A stretch of DNA of 42,815 nt from positions 1-42,815 of IMG/VR virus record IMGVR_UViG_2630968533_000007, one strand, 5' to 3'. The notes below the pieces were generated by a model that saw nothing but the letters and a program-made list of their open reading frames with translations, was not told where the DNA came from and made no database searches. Shown here one piece after another: positions 378 to 41,447 of the stretch (position 1 is the stretch's first letter; each line of letters opens with the position of its first letter). The position numbers and the translations under genes are program-made. This stretch comes from a virus (Duplodnaviria > Heunggongvirae > Uroviricota > Caudoviricetes).

Positions 378-383
378 TTTAAA

Positions 384-429
384 TGGTGCCGATAATAGGA
401 GTCGAACCTACGACCTTCGCATTACGAAT
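384..429. repeat. attL: direct repeat of the 3' 46 nt of tRNA-Thr (near-identical block 367-429 matches 41355-41417)
   Basis: tggtgccgataataggagtcgaacctacgaccttcgcattacgaat present at both 384-429 and 41372-41417; the left copy lacks the tRNA 5' half. Confidence 0.8.
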
Positions 430-968
430 TATAAGAATCCGCTTCTAATTCAAAGCATTACCCCATCAACACTGCGCTCACACGTCCCACCACATCAAAA
501 CATGTAAAGCCTTGCAAGCCATTGCGAGGCCTTATATGTCTCAGTTTTGTCCCACCTTGTATTACGACTTGCATAGCCAATGAAGATAAACGTAACGACA
601 AACGGCACTGCAGTCTTCTTTTCTTTCACGACTTCCCCACACCCAGCATGCATACCTTTCTGCCACAACTGTAGTGAATGTCTGTTATGAGCGAAATATA
701 GTCATTGACTACCGAATCTCTTTTCGCCGAAACGCGCTACTAAATAGCTAGCGCGTGCGCAATGGCACGTTAGTGCTGATATACGTCAGGAGTAAAGCGT
801 GATGTAAATTTTTCTGATGAATTTTCAGAATGTATCATCCGGGCTTACCGATGGCAGTGTCGTTTCGGCTCAAAAAGGTGTGAAATATAAATAGCAGCGC
901 TGATGTTTAAATAATTATCAAGTCTGGCATGATGAGAGAGAAACTTAACTTATGCGAGGATCGCAAGT

Positions 969-2339
969 ATGCTGAATCTTATCGTTGTCGGAACCCCCAA
1001 ATACTACACTTTTTTTTCTGAACCCAGTGGCAATGACTCTTTCCCTGTGTCGCGACTCTTCGAATCCACGCCAGAGTCTCTTAGAAGCAGATTGCTTCCC
1101 CTGACTGAAAAAACCTATCATTTTCTTCAGGAACTGCCCGTTGTATTTATGTCCGAGCCGGAAATTGAATTCGATGAAGATAATGAAAAAATAGGTTATT
1201 TCAGCCACATCCGCTTAGGAAAAATCAGCAAGATAAGTACGTCCGTGTATAACAGAGAAAAAGTTTTAGCGTTTGATTATGAGATTACCAGTGATATCGG
1301 CTACAAGCCTTTAACCAGCGATAAAGAGTACGTAAGTGAGCTGGAGCTGGGCAGTTTCGGACTAAACAGAACGTTCTGGGCGGTCAAAGAGATTTCCGTA
1401 AATGAGATTCTGCGTGTTTTAGGCCTTGAAGGCTATTCTAATGTTGAGCCCGCAGCAGCGAGTGCGGAAGCACCGGAGAATAATGAAGAACTAGAGATCA
1501 TTGCGAATATCAATCAGTACTTGCAGGTGATACTCGATCATACACAGGGAAACGATGAAGAGGTATTTTACCGCGGTCACTCGGACATCAACTACCAACT
1601 GGAACCCTCACTGTTCCGCAAGGATACTCAGGGTAACTATCGCTACCGCCATCACGAATCGGACATGATAACAGAGCTGCTGACCGTGCAGCCCGCCGAG
1701 TTCAAAGACGATCGGTATATGCTAGATAAACTCGTGCGCATGCAACACTATGGCCTACCCACACGCCTGCTTGATGTATCAACAAACCCCTTGATCGCAC
1801 TATATTTTGCCTGCTCTAAAATCAAGCACGATGAAAATAATCATGAAATTGACGGGAACGTCATTATTCTGACGACGCCCAAAAGTGAAATTAAGTTTTT
1901 CGACTCGGATACCGTAAGTTGCATAGCCAATCTTTCCCGTCTTCCCTCTCGTTTCAAAAGCAGCCTGAAAACTAATCTCACCATTCCGGCGTTTAACGAA
2001 TCTGAAGAGTGCGGACAACTACTACACCTGATCCGCGATGAAAAGTCCTATTTCAAAAGCATCATCGATCCGGTCCACCTAAGTAAAATTGTTGTGGTCA
2101 AAGGTCGGCTCAGTAACGCACGTATTTCGTCCCAATCAGGCGCTTTCCTGCTCTTTGGTGAAAACGTAGACCTACCGGAAACGGGACTCAGTACGCTGAA
2201 CATCAAAAAGCTTGTTATTAGAAACAAAGAGCATCTGATGCAGCAACTGAGCCGCCTTGGCATTAACGAAAGCACGGTGTACCCCGGCATTGAGAAGGCT
2301 GCTACGGAAATTGCAAAACTATACGATGGACGAATCTGA
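969..2339 (+). CDS. FRG-domain protein with an uncharacterised ~190-aa N-terminal region (cargo, candidate defence component)
   Basis: Motifs VFYRGHSDINYQLEPSLFR and LVRMQHYGLPTRLLDVSTNPLIALYFA match the conserved FRG-domain signature; GAGGA ribosome-binding site before the ATG at 969. Confidence 0.55.
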   Translation: MLNLIVVGTPKYYTFFSEPSGNDSFPVSRLFESTPESLRSRLLPLTEKTYHFLQELPVVFMSEPEIEFDEDNEKIGYFSHIRLGKISKISTSVYNREKVLAFDYEITSDIGYKPLTSDKEYVSELELGSFGLNRTFWAVKEISVNEILRVLGLEGYSNVEPAAASAEAPENNEELEIIANINQYLQVILDHTQGNDEEVFYRGHSDINYQLEPSLFRKDTQGNYRYRHHESDMITELLTVQPAEFKDDRYMLDKLVRMQHYGLPTRLLDVSTNPLIALYFACSKIKHDENNHEIDGNVIILTTPKSEIKFFDSDTVSCIANLSRLPSRFKSSLKTNLTIPAFNESEECGQLLHLIRDEKSYFKSIIDPVHLSKIVVVKGRLSNARISSQSGAFLLFGENVDLPETGLSTLNIKKLVIRNKEHLMQQLSRLGINESTVYPGIEKAATEIAKLYDGRI

Positions 2340-2480
2340 TAGCGCTTTAGTCGCACGGCACGCCTGTGTGCCAGCGTGGGCCCATAGCCGCTTTAATCGC
2401 CGTGCAGAATGCAGTTTTCAGGTAACTTCAGAGAAACAAGTGATCTCATTTCGTTGTATTTATTAGCTGCGGAGTCATTA

Positions 2481-3533
2481 ATGGAAAGAATCAAGAGGAA
2501 TCCCGAACGATTTGAAGCCTTTGAGCTTTTTTCCTCGTTGGGCCAGATCTATAATTACGATATTAAAAACCCCGAGCACCAGGATGACTTTATACAAAAG
2601 GTCACCACGTCATTAATCGCTTCCCATCAGAATCCAATTCTGCTGAACGGGAAAAGAATAGAAAACCTATTTAAACACGTTTGCGCCGCACTGAACCACT
2701 GCCAGTTTCTTAAACAGGAAGACGCCGGAGACTTGATGTCAGCCGATCCCGATCTGGTGGCACCTGACTATCGCATTATACTGAAGGATCGCCGTCAGAT
2801 CTTTGTGGAAGTAAAAAACTTTAACGCGGATGACGTGGCTGACGATTATCGCCTGAAGAAATCGTACAGTGATAAGGTTGAAAAGTACGGTGAGCTCCAT
2901 GGTATTCCAGTTTATTATGCCATCTACATCAGGATGCTGCGCCGGTGGGCGCTGGTTGCACGCTCCTCAATGAAGGAGCTAGAGCGTGAACATACCTTGA
3001 CGCAGGCCTCGGCGCTCGCAAAAAGTGAGATGTACCTGCTGGGCGACCTATCGATAGCAACAGAACCCGATCTGGTTTTTGAGCTTATCCCCGACCGGAC
3101 CAAAGAAGTTTCAGTTAGTCCCGAAGGCATCGCCCATTTTACAATTGGCGAGATTAAAATTTACTGCAATGACAGACAAGTAACGGATAAATTTGAAATG
3201 AACACGGCGTTTCATCTGATGCGCTACGGAGAGTGGCTCTGCCCCGGATCGGAGGCAATATTCACTGATGGTCAGCTTGAGAGCATCCGATACACATTTT
3301 CCCCGGAAGACGACGAAAATTACAAAAGACAGGGTTTCGACTTTATAGGTACGCTGAGTTCGCTGGTCACGTCGGCCTTTAACGAGCAGACTGTACACGA
3401 CAGCCAGATCAGGTCAGTTGACACCCGGCAGAATGTCAGACTTTTCACGGTAACCATCCCTGATGATTACAAAGGGGGAGGCCTGCCTCTGTGGCGTTTC
3501 TCAATGCGGCCAAACTATGAATTTACCGATTAA
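2481..3533 (+). CDS. Hypothetical protein, possible PD-(D/E)xK nuclease-like partner of the FRG protein
   Basis: Same strand, 141 bp after the FRG gene; GGAG site 6 nt before the ATG at 2481 (the open frame extends up to 2409); segment PDYRIILKDRRQIFVEVK resembles a D...ExK active-site arrangement. Confidence 0.4.
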   Translation: MERIKRNPERFEAFELFSSLGQIYNYDIKNPEHQDDFIQKVTTSLIASHQNPILLNGKRIENLFKHVCAALNHCQFLKQEDAGDLMSADPDLVAPDYRIILKDRRQIFVEVKNFNADDVADDYRLKKSYSDKVEKYGELHGIPVYYAIYIRMLRRWALVARSSMKELEREHTLTQASALAKSEMYLLGDLSIATEPDLVFELIPDRTKEVSVSPEGIAHFTIGEIKIYCNDRQVTDKFEMNTAFHLMRYGEWLCPGSEAIFTDGQLESIRYTFSPEDDENYKRQGFDFIGTLSSLVTSAFNEQTVHDSQIRSVDTRQNVRLFTVTIPDDYKGGGLPLWRFSMRPNYEFTD

Positions 3534-3820
3534 GAGTAATAGTGAGACATTTAATCGGGATAAATCGCTCGATAATTCGTTGCTACTTCAACAACTTATA
3601 AATGAGAAGACCCAGCCTAATAACCTCACAATCAACTTCATTGCGGATCCCCAAAGATAGACGGGCATAGGCGGCTTTTTATCACCTAAGCGTCAGCGCA
3701 ACATAAATGATCGGGTCAATGGAATGACCTGTTCCCCGTTAAACAACACAGATGGTTGTTAGCCACTTCCGCACTTGGCATGACTTGTCCCACCGTTTGA
3801 TACGTTACTATCTTAGTAAT

Positions 3821-3835
3821 GTCCGCTTCTGGCAC
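3821..3835. repeat. 15-bp direct repeat gtccgcttctggcac, left copy flanking the AT-rich gene 4010-4825
   Basis: Perfect 15-mer also at 4874-4888; both copies are preceded by taatg. Confidence 0.5.
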
Positions 3836-4009
3836 GAAGCTATCGTAGGTTAGGCCCAAGGACAGCTTTAAGCGAGGAGCGGACGCTGAATTCGAATTCA
3901 TCGTAAAAATTTTTATGGCCAAGTAGCTCTATAAGGCCTTTCATTAAAGCTATCTTTGTCGCAAAGCTTATGCAAAAAGTTACTTTATCTTTAAATCTAA
4001 TAAGATAAC

Positions 4010-4825
4010 ATGATTGACGAAACTCCAAAATCAACTTTACTTAAGCAAAAACGAGGCATGCAATTGAAAAAGATTAGGAAAATCAATAAAAAAATTATTG
4101 ATGAATTGCTATCTCTTCGCGAATCAAGAGGAGCTATAGAAGACTTCTCAATGTCTTTCCTACTAAATTTTGCAGAAAATTGTCGACTTATGCATTCACT
4201 TATTTCAACGAAAGATAAGAAAATAGATATTTATAAAACAGCATATCGACAATATTTTGTATTTCTAATCAGTTGCTGGGAAACATATTTTAGAGACGTT
4301 TTTGTTTTCGTGCATTCAGTTGATGAATCTAGAATTACAACACTACTATCTAAAATGAGAACAGAAACATCTATCAATATAAACACTGAGATAAATCTAT
4401 CAGAGTTATTGAGTAAAAGCTTTAACTTTCAAAACTTAAACGACCTTGAAGAAGCATATAATGGCATGTGGGGTGAGAGTTTTTTAAACTACATATGTAC
4501 AACTAATATATCTCCTTGCGGTCTGAGTGGCCAAATTTCCCAAGATTTATCGATAGAAAATATATTTCCAGACTGGAGAGCCCTCATAGAGGAAGCATTT
4601 TACATTAGGCACAAAGTGGTTCATGATGCAAACTTCAGACCTAAAGTCAACATTGAATTAATCAGTAAGGTAGAGGCTTTGTTTTTAATAATCCCACAAT
4701 TTGCAACGCATATCATATCAGAAAGATTCAACTTAAAAAAAATCGTCATTTCAGATGGTAAAAATAACCATACCTATATTTTCAATATCAGTGATATATT
4801 ATCTGATGATTGGGTTGTTAGTTGA
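4010..4825 (+). CDS. Hypothetical AT-rich cargo protein with a C-terminal R-x4-H (HEPN-like) motif
   Basis: 271-aa ORF, markedly AT-rich compared with neighbouring genes; motif RHKVVHD near the C-terminus; no canonical Shine-Dalgarno site. Confidence 0.35.
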   Translation: MIDETPKSTLLKQKRGMQLKKIRKINKKIIDELLSLRESRGAIEDFSMSFLLNFAENCRLMHSLISTKDKKIDIYKTAYRQYFVFLISCWETYFRDVFVFVHSVDESRITTLLSKMRTETSININTEINLSELLSKSFNFQNLNDLEEAYNGMWGESFLNYICTTNISPCGLSGQISQDLSIENIFPDWRALIEEAFYIRHKVVHDANFRPKVNIELISKVEALFLIIPQFATHIISERFNLKKIVISDGKNNHTYIFNISDILSDDWVVS

Positions 4826-4873
4826 TGATGGGATTGTAAGTATATTAACACAAAAAACAAAGAATCTAATGAA

Positions 4874-4888
4874 GTCCGCTTCTGGCAC
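4874..4888. repeat. 15-bp direct repeat gtccgcttctggcac, right copy
   Basis: Perfect match to 3821-3835. Confidence 0.5.
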
Positions 4889-5063
4889 ATAGCAGCCCTA
4901 GAGACAGTGGCGTAAAGTCATGGAGGATAGGTGGGAGGAGGTAAAAATCCTCTCATACAAAAATATGTAAAATCGATAACGGCTGGAAATCATTCAATAT
5001 TCGCACTATCAGAAGCTGGCCAGCCAGCCGCAGCACTTTCTTGCATACGACGAGCCTGCGGTT

Positions 5064-5618
5064 TCATTTATCTCCGACCGGAAACTTCTTATACAGTGTC
5101 GATACACCAACATCATAGATGATCGCCACCTTCTGGCGAGGAATTCCTGCTGCAATTAATCGTCCGGCCTGCGCCCATTGTTCTGGTGTAAGTTTGGGAC
5201 GACGTCCACCAATTCGTCCCTGTGCGCGAGCAGCTTCCAGTCCAGCTTTTGTTCGTTCAACAATCAGTTCACGCTCCATTTCAGCCAGGGCACCCATCAC
5301 ATGAAAGAAAAAACGCCCCATTGGTGTGCTGGTATCAATTGAATCCGTCAGACTACGAAAGTTGATGCCTCGTTCGCGCAACTCCTCCACCAACACGACA
5401 AGATGCCGCATACTACGCCCCAGCCGATCCAGCTTCCAGACAACCAGAGTGTCACCTGCCGATAATGTCCTGAGCAGTTTTTTCAGTCCCGGCCTTTCGG
5501 ACTTTGTGCCGCTTATCTTGTCTTCAAAAATCAGCTCGCATCCTGCACAGTTCAGCGCATTACGTTGTAGATCTGTGTTCTGGTCATTTGTTGATACGCG
5601 TACATAGCCAATAAGCAT
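5064..5618 (-). CDS. pin: Serine recombinase, DNA invertase of the Hin/Gin/Pin family
   Basis: MLIGYVRVSTNDQNTDLQ...VVWKLDRLGRSM...GINFRSLTDSIDTS...GRIGGRRPK is nearly collinear with Pin/Gin invertases; start taken at the internal ATG at 5618. Confidence 0.93.
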   Translation of the reverse strand: MLIGYVRVSTNDQNTDLQRNALNCAGCELIFEDKISGTKSERPGLKKLLRTLSAGDTLVVWKLDRLGRSMRHLVVLVEELRERGINFRSLTDSIDTSTPMGRFFFHVMGALAEMERELIVERTKAGLEAARAQGRIGGRRPKLTPEQWAQAGRLIAAGIPRQKVAIIYDVGVSTLYKKFPVGDK

Positions 5619-25168: not shown

Positions 25169-25318
25169 TGCATAATCCTCTTGGATGGTTCGCGTGCGAT
25201 ACGTGGCATCCTTCTCAGAATCGAATCGCACTCCACTCCGGTTTTGCCATAAACGATCTTTTATGCTTCGCTGGATGTAGTTGATAGTTGTTGAAACTCA
25301 ATGAACAGGAGTTCACAA

Positions 25319-25654
25319 ATGAATAGTTATGAATGGGAATGGCTTTTAAACAAAGATGACACCCTATGCTTTTTCCCCGTAGGCCATTCTGTAGAAGGTA
25401 ATTACAAAATTCACTTTGAGTTGAGCGGTAGTTGTAACCTTAGAGTCTCAGATGCTGAATGGCATGGTAAACCTGTACTGCTGTTCGAATACTTCGATGA
25501 AGATGATGACCGCCCTGCAATAATCGAAATATTAGAAACAACTACTACAACTGTGGAGGCGATGATCGGGCATCTGAATAGTATCGATAGTATTTACCAT
25601 GAACCGATTTACAAAGCGGTTTACGAGTGGGCCGTAAAGTTTTTCTATCGATGA
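25319..25654 (+). CDS. Hypothetical acidic protein, first gene of an AT-rich cargo cassette
   Basis: AGGAG site 7 nt before the ATG at 25319; opposite strand to all flanking phage genes. Confidence 0.5.
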   Translation: MNSYEWEWLLNKDDTLCFFPVGHSVEGNYKIHFELSGSCNLRVSDAEWHGKPVLLFEYFDEDDDRPAIIEILETTTTTVEAMIGHLNSIDSIYHEPIYKAVYEWAVKFFYR

Positions 25655-25697
25655 TACTTCGTTATCTTGCTGGCATTCACAATACCTTTACATACTA

Positions 25698-26324
25698 ATG
25701 ACATGCCAGCACAATACTGTCACTTACAACCGTTCGGATTACCTAGAGAAAAGTATGATTCAGGATTTACTGATCGAAGCAATTAGTCACGATAGGATGC
25801 ATAAAAAGTTAAATGAACTGAATTGCTACTTCTACAATCGCAAACATGAAACTCAAATACGTGATGAGTTAGTTGTTATTCTCAATCAAATCAGCACACT
25901 AACTGCTTTAAGTGAGCATCCAAAACTCGGTATCGGCGCTGTTGACATATCACTTTATAACCAGTCGATATTAACGTCTGAACATAATGGCAATGTTGCA
26001 ACCATCGAGATCAAACACCATTACCCAAAGGATTTACTTTATCGGCAAGTTCAAGAAGACATCATTTCCGATATTTCAAGAGTAATAGTTTCACCAACTA
26101 CACATTTTATCCATATAATCCAGCAAAGAACTATGATTAATACTCCTTCTTTTGGCCAAGTGAAATTCCTTGAACGTGATGCAAGTGATATCAGCACTTA
26201 TGTGCAATGCCTTGAAGAGCTAAGTTCCTTCCCCAGTATCTTTCATAAAAAAAGTATATGTATTGAGGTACTTGGTGAAATTATGTCGACATATACCTTT
26301 AACGTATATTCATTTGACAACTGA
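25698..26324 (+). CDS. Hypothetical protein, second gene of the AT-rich cargo cassette; possible PD-(D/E)xK-like motif
   Basis: 208-aa ORF (alternative ATG at 25755); segment GIGAVDISLY...VATIEIKHHY resembles a D...ExK arrangement. Confidence 0.45.
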   Translation: MTCQHNTVTYNRSDYLEKSMIQDLLIEAISHDRMHKKLNELNCYFYNRKHETQIRDELVVILNQISTLTALSEHPKLGIGAVDISLYNQSILTSEHNGNVATIEIKHHYPKDLLYRQVQEDIISDISRVIVSPTTHFIHIIQQRTMINTPSFGQVKFLERDASDISTYVQCLEELSSFPSIFHKKSICIEVLGEIMSTYTFNVYSFDN

Positions 26325-27746: not shown

Positions 27747-28799
27747 TTATTTCCCCACCAGTTCACTTACCTCTTTCACCGTCTGATTAAACCGCTCTGA
27801 CTCAAGTTCAACACCTAACGCCCGACGTCCCAGCGCCATTGCTGCTTTTATTGTGGAACCGGATCCCATAAAAAAATCAGCAACCAGATCACCTGGTCGA
27901 CTACTGGCATTGATTATTTGCCGGAGCATATCCGCAGGCTTCTCACACGGATGTTTACCCGGGTAGAACTGAACGGGTTTATGCGTCCAGACGTCGGTAT
28001 AAGGCACGGAAACTGATACGGAGAAATAGCGCCGGAGAGTTTTAAACTCATCCAGCAATTCAGAATATTTGCGATTCAGTGAATCATAAGATGCCACCAG
28101 CTGGTGGTGTGGTTGTTCCAGTTGTTGTTCCTGAAACTTCTCTGCCGCTATACGGGAAAACAGTGCCTGTAACTTCCGATAGTCAGCCTCATTCGGCAAC
28201 TGCCACTGACTGGCACCAAACCAGTGGGAAACCATATTTTTCTTACCTGTGGCTTCGGCAATTTGTTTTGCCGTTATACCCAGTTCGGCACGAGCATCCC
28301 TGAAATACGATATCAGCGGTGCCATTATGTGCTGTTTGAGTTCCCTTTCTTTTGCCGCATAGCCGTCACTTTTGCCGCGATATGGCCCCTGGTAATGTTC
28401 AGCAAACAGAACGCGCTCTGTGGCAGGAAAATATGCGCGCAGACTTTCTTTATTACACCCATTCCAACGTCCGGACGGCTTCGCCCAGATGATATTGTTA
28501 AGCACGTTGAAACGTTCACGCATCATGATCTCAATATCAGATGCCAGGCGATGCCCACAGAACAGGTAAAGGCTTCCGGCAGGTTTCAACACCCGCCAGA
28601 ACTGGGCCAGACAGTGGTCCAGCCACTTAAGGTAATCTTCGTCCCCTTTCCACTGATTGTCCCAACCGTTGGGTTTCACCTTGAAGTAAGGCGGATCGGT
28701 AACAATCAGGTCAATGGAATCATCAGGCAGGGACTGAATAAAATGCAGGCAATCAGCGTTGATTAAATCAACACTGTTTATTTTTACAGTATTTTTCAT
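27747..28799 (-). CDS. DNA methyltransferase (N6-adenine/N4-cytosine, beta class), orphan
   Basis: DPPY motif near the N-terminus and FMGSGST AdoMet motif near the C-terminus; no adjacent restriction gene. Confidence 0.8.
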   Translation of the reverse strand: MKNTVKINSVDLINADCLHFIQSLPDDSIDLIVTDPPYFKVKPNGWDNQWKGDEDYLKWLDHCLAQFWRVLKPAGSLYLFCGHRLASDIEIMMRERFNVLNNIIWAKPSGRWNGCNKESLRAYFPATERVLFAEHYQGPYRGKSDGYAAKERELKQHIMAPLISYFRDARAELGITAKQIAEATGKKNMVSHWFGASQWQLPNEADYRKLQALFSRIAAEKFQEQQLEQPHHQLVASYDSLNRKYSELLDEFKTLRRYFSVSVSVPYTDVWTHKPVQFYPGKHPCEKPADMLRQIINASSRPGDLVADFFMGSGSTIKAAMALGRRALGVELESERFNQTVKEVSELVGK

Positions 28800-29472: not shown

Positions 29473-30492
29473 TTGGATAAGTTTGATGAGATTCATGTAG
29501 ACATTGAATCTGAGCAGCAAGCCTTCGATTTGCTTGAAAGCTATCTTGATGGTTATGGTTTACCTGACAGTTTAAGTTTCAACGGATGGCCAAACCTTAC
29601 CATCAGATTAACCGGTGAAAAATTCAACAGATCGCTAACACCTTCAGTTATGAAGGGATTTGTTGAAATGCAAGCTCAAATCAACAAATCATATGCCCTT
29701 GCCAAGTACGGTGTCCCTGACGTCCGCAAACTGACCAAAGAAGAACTTGATGCCCTAGAAATAGAAGTTACGGTAGAACAGGGTTCTTCAATAGTAGAAA
29801 TCAACATTGATGGCTTTTTAACCAAACTCACACAGGAACTTGTTGGTAAAATGAACGCAACTGAGATCATGTTTACTGTTCTCGGCGCAGCAGTCATCTG
29901 GGGCGGAGTAACAGTATTTAAACGGTTCTTGGACAACCGTAAAGATATTCGCCTTGCAGAAATTGCTAAGGATGGAGAGAAAGAACATCTCCGGACTATG
30001 CAGATCATGAGCGAGCAAGAAACTAAACGCCTGCGGGTTATTTCAGAAATGATTGCGGAAAAACCACTTCTCGATAACATGGACCGTATGTCGTATGACG
30101 CTAAAACCCAAATGGTCAAATCCTTTGTGCGTTCAGATAACGCTCAAATTGATGGCGTTACTATTGATTCTGAAATGGCGAAAGAGTTGGTTACGAATGC
30201 TCGTAGACGTTCATCAGAAATGAGGATTGATGGTATTTACCGAATTGAAGAAGTCAATAATACTGACCCAGAGAGTTTCAAAGTTAAGGTCCGACGCGTA
30301 GATACCGACCAACGTCTAACCTGCGTAGTTCAGGATGTTTTCCTTGATGAATCCGGAAACAAAGAAGCATTGCAGCGAGCTGAGTGGGAAAGAAAGCCTG
30401 TACATTTGAGCATTAACGCAAAACACGTCGATGGTGACATTAAGTCAGCAGTAATTCTCTATGTTCGAGATGTGGAACAAAAGCCCGAGTAA
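29473..30492 (+). CDS. Hypothetical single-pass membrane protein (cargo between Q and the late operon)
   Basis: 339-aa ORF with TTG start 7 nt after GAGGA; one hydrophobic helix (IMFTVLGAAVIWGGVTVF); convergent with Q. Confidence 0.5.
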   Translation: MDKFDEIHVDIESEQQAFDLLESYLDGYGLPDSLSFNGWPNLTIRLTGEKFNRSLTPSVMKGFVEMQAQINKSYALAKYGVPDVRKLTKEELDALEIEVTVEQGSSIVEINIDGFLTKLTQELVGKMNATEIMFTVLGAAVIWGGVTVFKRFLDNRKDIRLAEIAKDGEKEHLRTMQIMSEQETKRLRVISEMIAEKPLLDNMDRMSYDAKTQMVKSFVRSDNAQIDGVTIDSEMAKELVTNARRRSSEMRIDGIYRIEEVNNTDPESFKVKVRRVDTDQRLTCVVQDVFLDESGNKEALQRAEWERKPVHLSINAKHVDGDIKSAVILYVRDVEQKPE

Positions 30493-39967: not shown

Positions 39968-40317
39968 TGGAGCCATACAGCCTCACACTCGATGAGGCCT
40001 GTCATTTTCTCAAGATATCCAGACCGACTGCCATTAACTGGATACGCACAGGGCGTCTTCAGGCAACACGCAAAGATCCCACTAAGAATAAATCTCCTTA
40101 CCTCACAACACGACAAGCCTGCATTGCGGCTCTTCAGTCTCCGCTGCATACTGTCCAGGTGAGCGCGGGTGATGGCATAACAGAGGAAAGAAAATGTCAC
40201 TCTTCCGCAGAGGTGAAATATGGTACGCCAGTTTCACATTGCCGAACGGTAAAAGATTTAAACAGTCTCTTGGAACAAAGGACAAAAGGCAGGCGACAGA
40301 ACTCCATGACAAGCTAA
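39967..40317 (+). CDS. xis: Excisionase-like DNA-binding protein
   Basis: [31 protein letters not shown] immediately upstream of and overlapping int; GAGGTG site before the ATG. Confidence 0.55.
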
Positions 40318-41357
40318 AGGCTGAAGCATGGCGGGTCAGCAAACTTGGTGAAATACCTGATATAACGTTCGAGGAAGCGTGTGTCAGGTGGCTTGAAGAG
40401 AAAGCACATAAAAAATCACTGGACGATGACAAAAGCCGGATCGGATTCTGGCTTCAACATTTCGCAGGAATGCAACTAAGAGACATTACTGAATCAAAAA
40501 TTTATTCAGCAATGCAGAAAATGACGAACCGGCGTCATGAGGAAAACTGGAAACTCAGGGCAGAAGCATGCAGAAAAAAAGGGAAACCTGTTCCAGAATA
40601 CACGCCAAAACCAGCGTCCGTTGCAACGAAGGCTACGCATCTTTCATTTATAAAGGCCCTACTAAGAGCCGCAGAGCGTGAATGGAAAATGCTGGATAAG
40701 GCACCAATTATTAAAGTGCCTCAACCAAAGAATAAACGGATCCGCTGGCTGGAGCCCCATGAAGCACAAAGGCTGATTGATGAATGTCCGGAGCCATTAA
40801 AGTCTGTTGTTGAATTTGCACTGGCAACAGGCTTAAGACGCTCGAACATCATCAACCTTGAATGGCAACAAATAGATATGCAGCGCCGGGTGGCATGGAT
40901 AAACCCGGAAGAGAGTAAATCAAACCGCGCAATTGGCGTTGCGCTGAATGATACTGCATGTCGCGTATTGAAAAAACAAATCGGGAATCATCACCGTTGG
41001 GTATTTGTGTACAAGGAAAGCTGTACCAAACCAGACGGAACGAAAGCGCCAACAGTAAGGAAGATGCGGTATGACGCAAACACAGCCTGGAAAGCGGCGC
41101 TGAGACGGGCTGGTATTGATGATTTCAGATTTCACGACTTGAGACACACCTGGGCAAGTTGGCTGGTTCAAGCCGGAGTCCCGTTGTCAGTGTTACAGGA
41201 AATGGGAGGCTGGGAGTCTATCGAAATGGTTCGTCGATATGCTCACCTTGCACCTAATCACCTTACCGAACACGCACGGCAAATAGACTCGATCCTGAAC
41301 CCATCGGTCCCAAATTTGTCCCAGTCAAAAAATAAGGAAGGTACTAATGATGTGTAA
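40194..41357 (+). CDS. int: Site-specific tyrosine integrase (lambda-type)
   Basis: 387 aa with C-terminal ...[10 protein letters not shown]...[15 protein letters not shown] catalytic region; ends 14 bp from the tRNA. Confidence 0.9.
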
Positions 41358-41371
41358 CTTATTGATTTTAA

Positions 41372-41447
41372 TGGTGCCGATAATAGGAGTCGAACCTACG
41401 ACCTTCGCATTACGAATGCGCTGCTCTACCAACTGAGCTATATCGGC
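41372..41447 (-). tRNA. thrW: tRNA-Thr (anticodon CGU)
   Basis: Minus-strand sequence gccgatatagctcagttggtagagcagcgcattcgtaatgcgaaggtcgtaggttcgactcctattatcggcacca folds as a cloverleaf with CGT anticodon and encoded CCA. Confidence 0.92.

Follow-up and report, generated by a model that had tools for sequence, protein, structure and literature searches.

A candidate FRG-domain sensor-effector and a predicted PD-(D/E)xK nuclease carried side by side in an Escherichia coli prophage

The window analyzed here is the whole stretch of 42,815 nucleotides of the IMG/VR virus record IMGVR_UViG_2630968533_000007 (Caudoviricetes). It is a prophage of E. coli, with a Mu-like contractile tail, inserted at tRNA-Thr (thrW) beside proA. 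Just inside one of its attachment (att) sites are two genes on the same strand, called here gene A and gene B, followed by a third, gene C (Table 1). Gene A is a member of a catalogued, uncharacterised defence candidate and has a newly recognised reader-like domain. Gene B represents an uncatalogued nuclease family. We somewhat favour the reading that A and B are two separable single-gene defence candidates, often linked, whose pairing is facultative.

The cassette and its prophage setting

An earlier note on this DNA had described two genes at this place and proposed them as an undescribed anti-phage pair. The first open reading frame is as described, and the second is real. The second frame extends over 2409-3533 (+), but its start is placed at the ATG at 2481, giving a product of 350 amino acids (aa). 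This is the start called by the Prokaryotic Genome Annotation Pipeline (PGAP), it agrees with where 33 homologues begin, and a GGAG ribosome-binding site precedes it, as one also does in the Serratia orthologue.

A 48-bp direct repeat pair delimits both att sites. An E. coli record that does not differ from the window over positions 600-5000 has tRNA-Thr and the integrase (40257-41375, later coordinates being shifted by ~18 bp) annotated at the prophage end opposite gene A. The start of gene A is 540 bp inward of the integrase-distal att. On the + strand the order from this att is A, B, C, then a pinE-type invertase and an invertible tail-fibre segment, which confirms the cargo position inside att and beyond the tail-fibre switch noted before. 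At 215-369, just outside the left att repeat, is the C-terminal part of an integrase gene; it carries a pseudogene annotation and suggests a remnant of an earlier element inserted in tandem at thrW.

The cassette is found in 28 of 5,426 complete E. coli genomes. A copy of A-B(-C) that is 99.5% identical to that of the window is found in the b-region of the lambdoid siphovirus PhiR11_1 (from ECOR13; its record gives K-12 MG1655 as the host), and A-B cassettes also exist in small integrase islands. Since the cassette is carried at such identity by an unrelated siphovirus, it is a mobile module outside any one phage's life cycle. Together with the non-phage islands, this upholds the earlier statement that the two genes have no role in the phage life cycle. 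Between att and gene A, at 615-694, an 80-95-nt stretch is 97.5% identical to phage lambda 27331-27410 (the b-region side of attP). This stretch also matches many lambdoid phages, yet the prophage of the window is a myovirus. In PhiR11_1, an IS2 is inserted between the lambda-like stretch and gene A.

Table 1. Genes, domains and candidate residues of the cassette, and the adjoining att repeat
Feature	Position	Strand	Description
Integrase-distal att repeat	382..429		48 bp; by exact-match search identical to 41370-41417, the tRNA-Thr (thrW) 3' end
Gene A	969..2339	+	456-aa FRG-domain protein; PADLOC candidate PDC-S15; phrog_4962; PGAP 'FRG domain-containing protein'
Gene A, N-terminal beta-rich domain	969..1433	+	Residues ~1-155; probable PUA-like (YTH/EVE/ASCH) reader fold
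Gene A, FRG module (extended)	1479..2324	+	Residues 171-452; Pfam FRG core residues 198-289 (nt 1560-1835); predicted fold like that of ADP-ribosyltransferases (ART)
Gene B	2481..3533	+	350-aa two-domain protein of an unannotated family
Gene B, residues 1-185	2481..3035	+	Helical N-terminal segment and predicted Hjc-like PD-(D/E)xK core
Gene B, catalytic candidates	E61 2661-2663; D96 2766-2768; E110 2808-2810; K112 2814-2816	+	Conserved in the alignment of 33 homologues
Gene B, residues 186-350	3036..3530	+	Conserved C-terminal alpha/beta domain
Gene C	4010..4825	+	271 aa, G+C content 0.33, HEPN-like; third cargo gene of the E. coli cassette

The proteins encoded by genes A and B

The Pfam FRG profile (PF08867) matches gene A at residues 198-289 with an E value of 4.7e-22 (79.2 bits, the cut-off being 25 bits), so the FRG domain recognised in the earlier note is certain. 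Fourteen PDC-S15 models of PADLOC also match (best E 8.4e-99, residues 171-452), and phrog_4962 of PHROGs matches residues 1-453 (E 7.7e-85), that is, the full-length architecture. Note that PADLOC defines PDC-S15 as a single-gene defence candidate, which fits the mostly solitary distribution of genes of the A type described below. All three families, matched by gene A at full significance, are computational candidates, and none of them describes a PUA-like N-terminal domain or a nuclease partner.

FRG is widespread (at least 2,750 matches among 8,000 candidates scored in one search), and the full architecture of 450-460 aa is common. In the full-length search, all of the 120 matches listed carry FRG, most cover 94-100% of the query, identity goes down to 43%, and the architecture reaches Rhizobium and Sphingomonas among these matches. 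A 189-residue query from the N-terminal region had found only 7 clusters, as if this region were a rare extension; the idea was dropped when the full-length search showed the architecture to be common. In an alignment of 42 homologues, R202, G203, and H204 of the FYRGH motif (residues 200-204) are invariant, as are S214, S/T271-272, and E358.

The AlphaFold2 model of gene A has a predicted local distance difference test score (pLDDT) of 85. In a structure search it gave both ART-fold matches, including the RES toxins ParT and MbcT, and PUA-like matches. Since this search reports no query ranges, matches were placed by secondary structure, by which the ART matches appear to belong to the FRG module and the PUA-like matches to residues 1-155. 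The FRG module of gene A can be compared with the NAD+-using ART-fold enzymes of defence and toxin systems (DarT, RES/ParT, MbcT, and CmdT-type enzymes). The ART assignment agrees with the published classification of FRG in the ART superfamily as a predicted anti-viral effector and possible NADase (PMC9503650; bioRxiv 10.1101/2024.07.30.605764).

The N-terminal domain of gene A probably has the PUA-like beta-barrel fold to which the second set of structure matches points, given the placement by secondary structure. At the sequence level, Pfam EVE, ASCH, and YTH gave no match to 19 such N-terminal domains at E<=10, and a profile of the domain found scattered single matches with E>0.02 in Pfam and among PDB sequences. 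The full-length profiles had no matches among PDB sequences. The invariant W137, F60, and F102 of this domain are candidate aromatic pocket residues for base binding. YTH, EVE, and ASCH domains, as well as type IV restriction enzymes, recognise modified or flipped-out bases with the PUA-like fold. The combination of a reader with an effector resembles type IV (modification-dependent) restriction enzymes, e.g., VcaM4I (PUA-like and HNH), McrB-N, and PD-T4-3. Gene A differs from them in that its effector is an FRG (ART-like) module and not a nuclease, and it has no sequence similarity to them. The prophage also carries two orphan DNA methyltransferase genes, at 27747-28799 (-) and ~33.4-34.1 kb (-), one of which is Dam-like (N6-adenine). 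They may be relevant if the cargo genes read DNA modification.

Gene B has no match in Pfam, NCBIfam, PADLOC, or PHROGs. The label 'undescribed', given earlier to the pair, does not hold for A, which is covered by PDC-S15 and phrog_4962 and whose FRG domain had already been predicted as an anti-viral effector of the ART superfamily (PMC9503650). Though small, the family of gene B is genuine: out of 1.84 billion sequences, 1,263 representatives match at E<=1e-3, and there are 49 clusters at 90% identity. Nearly all of the best 150 relatives are 340-370 aa long and match end to end, that is, the architecture is fixed. An E...PD...ExK signature is found in 33 sequences that are 29-92% identical. 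P95, D96, E110, V111, and K112 are invariant, and conservation of E61 is at least 90%. G57 and K78-x-E80-D81 are conserved as well. An AlphaFold2 model built with the alignment of the 33 homologues (pLDDT 91.4) has the alpha-beta-beta-beta-alpha-beta core of the PD-(D/E)xK superfamily. The predicted structure and the conserved E61, D96, E110, and K112 thus bear out the restriction-endonuclease-like fold suspected before.

The best structural matches of gene B are Holliday-junction resolvases. The alignment covers only ~118 residues, which leaves the C-terminal 165 as a separate conserved domain. In this domain G188, D189, and E239 are invariant, W252 and W338 nearly so, and the model has pLDDT 80-97; its profile found only scattered single matches (E>0.02) in Pfam and among PDB sequences. 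Gene B shares the predicted Hjc-like core with archaeal Hjc, bacterial RecU, and small PD-(D/E)xK homing or restriction nucleases. However, members of the Hjc/RecU family are small (~120-200 aa), single-domain proteins recognised by family sequence matches, whereas gene B encodes 350 aa with a 50-residue helical N-terminus and the C-terminal domain, is only 14% identical, has no Pfam Hjc match, and is found on bacterial mobile elements. A role as the prophage's own junction resolvase was rejected, since the prophage already carries RusA and gene B also occurs outside phages.

The only structural lead for the C-terminal domain comes from SPARDA. In three SPARDA structures, Foldseek aligns the DREN-APAZ chains to ~300 of the 350 residues of gene B, with E 4.4e-4 to 3e-3, probability 0.69-0.97, and low template modelling (TM) scores of 0.17-0.25. 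This coverage, and the same order of nuclease first and accessory domain second, would be expected if gene B were a solitary relative of the SPARDA effector DREN-APAZ (nuclease and APAZ-like), oligomerising on a nucleic-acid signal and degrading DNA and RNA indiscriminately in abortive infection. Gene B differs from SPARDA in the low TM-score and in having neither sequence similarity nor an associated short Argonaute, for which no gene was found in the window, in the Pfam tables of related loci, or among the 25 neighbour families listed (of 111). We regard such a kinship as very improbable.

Distribution of the two genes

In the search for partners, absences were checked with hidden Markov models from both families within 4-8 kb flanks. 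Gene B has an FRG neighbour in five lineages and lacks one in 28 of 33, and FRG proteins of the A type occur without B in six. Over the phylogenetic range of their families, A and B do not form an obligate pair. The proposal that the two are one system is thus matched by an adjacency that recurs in five enterobacterial lineages but not by the many lineages that have only one of them.

The first paired lineage consists of E. coli, PhiR11_1, and Kluyvera. The others (with our locus handles) are a metagenomic contig (L045; A 76%, B 88% identical), Serratia (A 80%, B 79%), where the cassette is in an island with TerB, BrxCD-like, and DEAD genes and a 1,207-aa helicase (AAA_11/12), a plasmid-like contig (L041; A 76%, B 65%), and L046. 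In E. coli, Kluyvera, Serratia, L041, and L045, the two genes are on the same strand with a gap of 98-141 bp. In L046, gene B (3255-4310, +; 69% identical) adjoins a divergently oriented gene for a 474-aa FRG protein (1432-2856, -), which has the same two-domain architecture as gene A but is only 41% identical. As judged from these sequences, the discordant divergence suggests an independent association of FRG with B.

Solitary copies of gene B are found directly after Gabija in Raoultella (82% identical), beside an insertion sequence (IS) in an integrative and conjugative element of Pectobacterium (83%), and at a prophage end in Morganella (47%). In addition, 43 plasmids, 34 of them conjugative and mostly from Providencia, Proteus, and E. 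coli, carry it at 42-45% identity (two contexts were examined, L047 and L048). On the first of these, the E. coli MOBH plasmid NZ_CP072987, gene B is near a 'restriction endonuclease' gene, a UvrD-like helicase gene, and a DUF4365 gene; the second is a Yersinia plasmid. There are also 23 loci in Planctomycetota, Acidobacteriota, Nitrospirota, Bacillota, and other groups, and an all-against-all BLAST of the neighbours in these distant loci found no conserved partner of B. The ~800-aa AAA ATPases encoded downstream of B in L045 and in the Yersinia plasmid were considered as a shared partner and rejected, as they are not homologous.

Gene A is likewise found alone. It adjoins Hachiman in Klebsiella (K. 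pneumoniae, L035 5001-6371), which groups with E. coli ET82 (78% identical). In E. coli LR-03 (81%) it is at the end of an integrative element, in Yersinia (58%) in the P2 hotspot beside CBASS, and it is also present in Aeromonas (50%), in the P2-like phage P22H1 (again in the P2 hotspot), and in the lambdoid phage Tritos. The solitary FRG genes of ET82 (L042 6001-7371) and of the K. pneumoniae locus are directly beside tRNA-Thr/proA, the thrW site of the window, without any prophage; the one in ET82 is followed by IS1 and betT. At 78-81% identity gene A is intact, solitary, and widespread, with 192 sequences in one cluster. A neighbour-joining tree of A has the paired and unpaired genes interleaved within the clade of at least 75% identity. 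Among the complete E. coli genomes, 46 of 5,426 have a full-length A-like gene and only 28 have B. This distribution is most simply explained by an ancestral enterobacterial cassette of A and B that repeatedly lost one gene or the other, the remaining gene staying free of decay.

These observations can also be read as one cooperative two-gene defence system, in which A senses or marks phage nucleic acid (by ADP-ribosylation or an NAD-derived signal) and B cleaves it or acts on DNA that is marked or stalled, solitary copies being degenerate remnants or re-partnered variants. Several points weigh in its favour and against separate genes. The same-strand adjacency and its short gap have been kept while the proteins diverged to 76% (A) and 65% (B), and A-B, with a third gene that varies, moves intact among a myovirus prophage, a siphovirus, islands, and plasmid-like contigs. 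FRG of the A type is present in only ~1% of E. coli genomes, so repeated chance adjacency to B is unlikely. Finally, L046 joins B to a different FRG lineage in the opposite orientation, which keeps cooperation a live alternative. The recurrent adjacency in the five lineages of Enterobacterales thus leaves some room for functional or selective linkage. On the other side, the B genes without FRG include full-length copies that are 82-83% identical, every B below 50% identity is solitary, and A is intact and alone in close relatives. No overlap or translational coupling of A and B is seen, and an inverted repeat follows the stop of gene A. We therefore consider one cooperative system a tentative and rather unlikely reading, and lean towards two separable genes. 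Homologues do sit in defence islands and prophage cargo sites, which the earlier note had proposed to check, but their co-occurrence is not obligate.

The inverted repeat (GGCAC-N6-GTGCC, at ~2354-2378) has no T-run. A repeat is present at this place in the window, Kluyvera, and L041, and partially in Serratia (L030), and the hairpin-forming sequence of L041 differs from that of the window. Its role may lie in processing or attenuation. In a promoter and terminator scan of 500-5100, sites were no commoner than in shuffled sequence, and none was found between A and B on the + strand.

Gene C is found in E. coli and PhiR11_1 and is absent from the cassettes of Kluyvera, Serratia, L041, and L045, and is therefore a third, independent candidate outside the conserved A-B unit. 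Kluyvera has, at this position, a gene for a 291-aa GTPase-like protein (MMR_HSR1/dynamin-N) instead. The match of gene C to Pfam HEPN_RiboL-PSP (E 7.8e-6, 26.4 bits) is under the cut-off of 28.4, and an Rx4H motif, RHKVVH, is found at residues 200-205. It has no PADLOC or PHROG match. On balance the region looks more like a small stack of prophage cargo ('moron') genes than one obligate operon-type system. Elsewhere in the window, at 25301-26324 (+) and 29473-30492 (+), three more open reading frames run against the surrounding late, lysis, and regulatory genes. They lie in low-GC pockets (0.38-0.43), have no Pfam match, and are possible further morons.

Defence context and proposed functions

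Relatives of A or B adjoin Gabija, Hachiman, CBASS, AbiU, and restriction-modification genes. Distant homologues of B, in particular, adjoin GajB (E 1e-223), AbiU with a HEC-04-like ATPase, MADS components, and type IIG/II restriction-modification genes. These neighbours are circumstantial support for a role in conflict. Gabija was considered as a recurrent partner of B and rejected. Immediately upstream of B on the same strand, GajB occurs only in Raoultella (B at L039 5001-6053) and in one metagenome-assembled genome of Vicinamibacterales (B at L024 8001-9007, 31% identical and apparently frameshifted), and the Gabija proteins of the two have no BLAST-level similarity. With the link confined to two lineages and dissimilar proteins, it is taken as co-location in defence islands; the adjacency could be chance within such islands or an accessory relationship. 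No experimental study was found in the literature on FRG, PDC-S15, PF08867, PhiR11_1, or the gene B family, including the papers on P2/P4 hotspots.

All contexts of A and B are mobile elements, and this raises the alternative that the two genes serve these elements rather than anti-phage defence. Gene B would then be a structure-specific resolvase or recombination nuclease, gene A an NAD-dependent toxin, addiction module, or host-manipulating enzyme, and either could be an anti-defence factor. The resolvase-like matches of B fit this alternative, as do its homologues near transfer genes on the 34 conjugative plasmids, and ART-fold proteins are frequent toxins. However, the prophage has its RusA, B with its extra conserved domains is far longer than resolvases of 120-140 aa, no conserved small antitoxin-like gene is found among the neighbours, and the relatives of A and B are directly beside the defence genes named above and in the P2 defence hotspot. 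We judge service to the mobile elements to be quite unlikely.

We infer, with a cautious preference for this view of role, ligands, FRG chemistry, and functional independence, that gene A is a single-polypeptide sensor-effector and gene B an independent endonuclease. The PUA-like reader domain of gene A would bind a feature of the invading nucleic acid. The FRG module would then spend NAD+ to ADP-ribosylate the bound nucleic acid or an associated protein; alternatively, it may hydrolyse NAD+ so that the infection aborts. Gene B would be Mg2+-dependent, using its Hjc-like PD-(D/E)xK core, and probably dimeric like Hjc. Its C-terminal domain probably sets the choice of target or holds the enzyme inactive until infection, and the nuclease may cut phage DNA or branched replication and recombination intermediates. 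In Enterobacterales, the two genes have been carried as a mobile cassette among prophages, islands, and plasmid-like elements, but each would work alone. A bolder and improbable version is 'type IV restriction by ADP-ribosylation', in which gene A would be a new sort of immune enzyme that reads modification or structure and would ADP-ribosylate the phage nucleic acid read by its PUA-like domain and, in the enterobacterial cassette, B would cut the marked or stalled DNA.

The locus provides an E. coli-native and easily cloned example of FRG, and the PUA-like reader domain suggests a concrete hypothesis on what triggers an FRG protein. The gene B family (~1,260 representatives) recurs in defence islands, at prophage ends, and on conjugative plasmids, and the facultative linkage of A and B is a useful test case for whether defence genes that adjoin one another act jointly or are only carried along side by side. 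If true, an ADP-ribosylating reader with nuclease follow-up would be the first biochemical function for FRG and a new two-step system.

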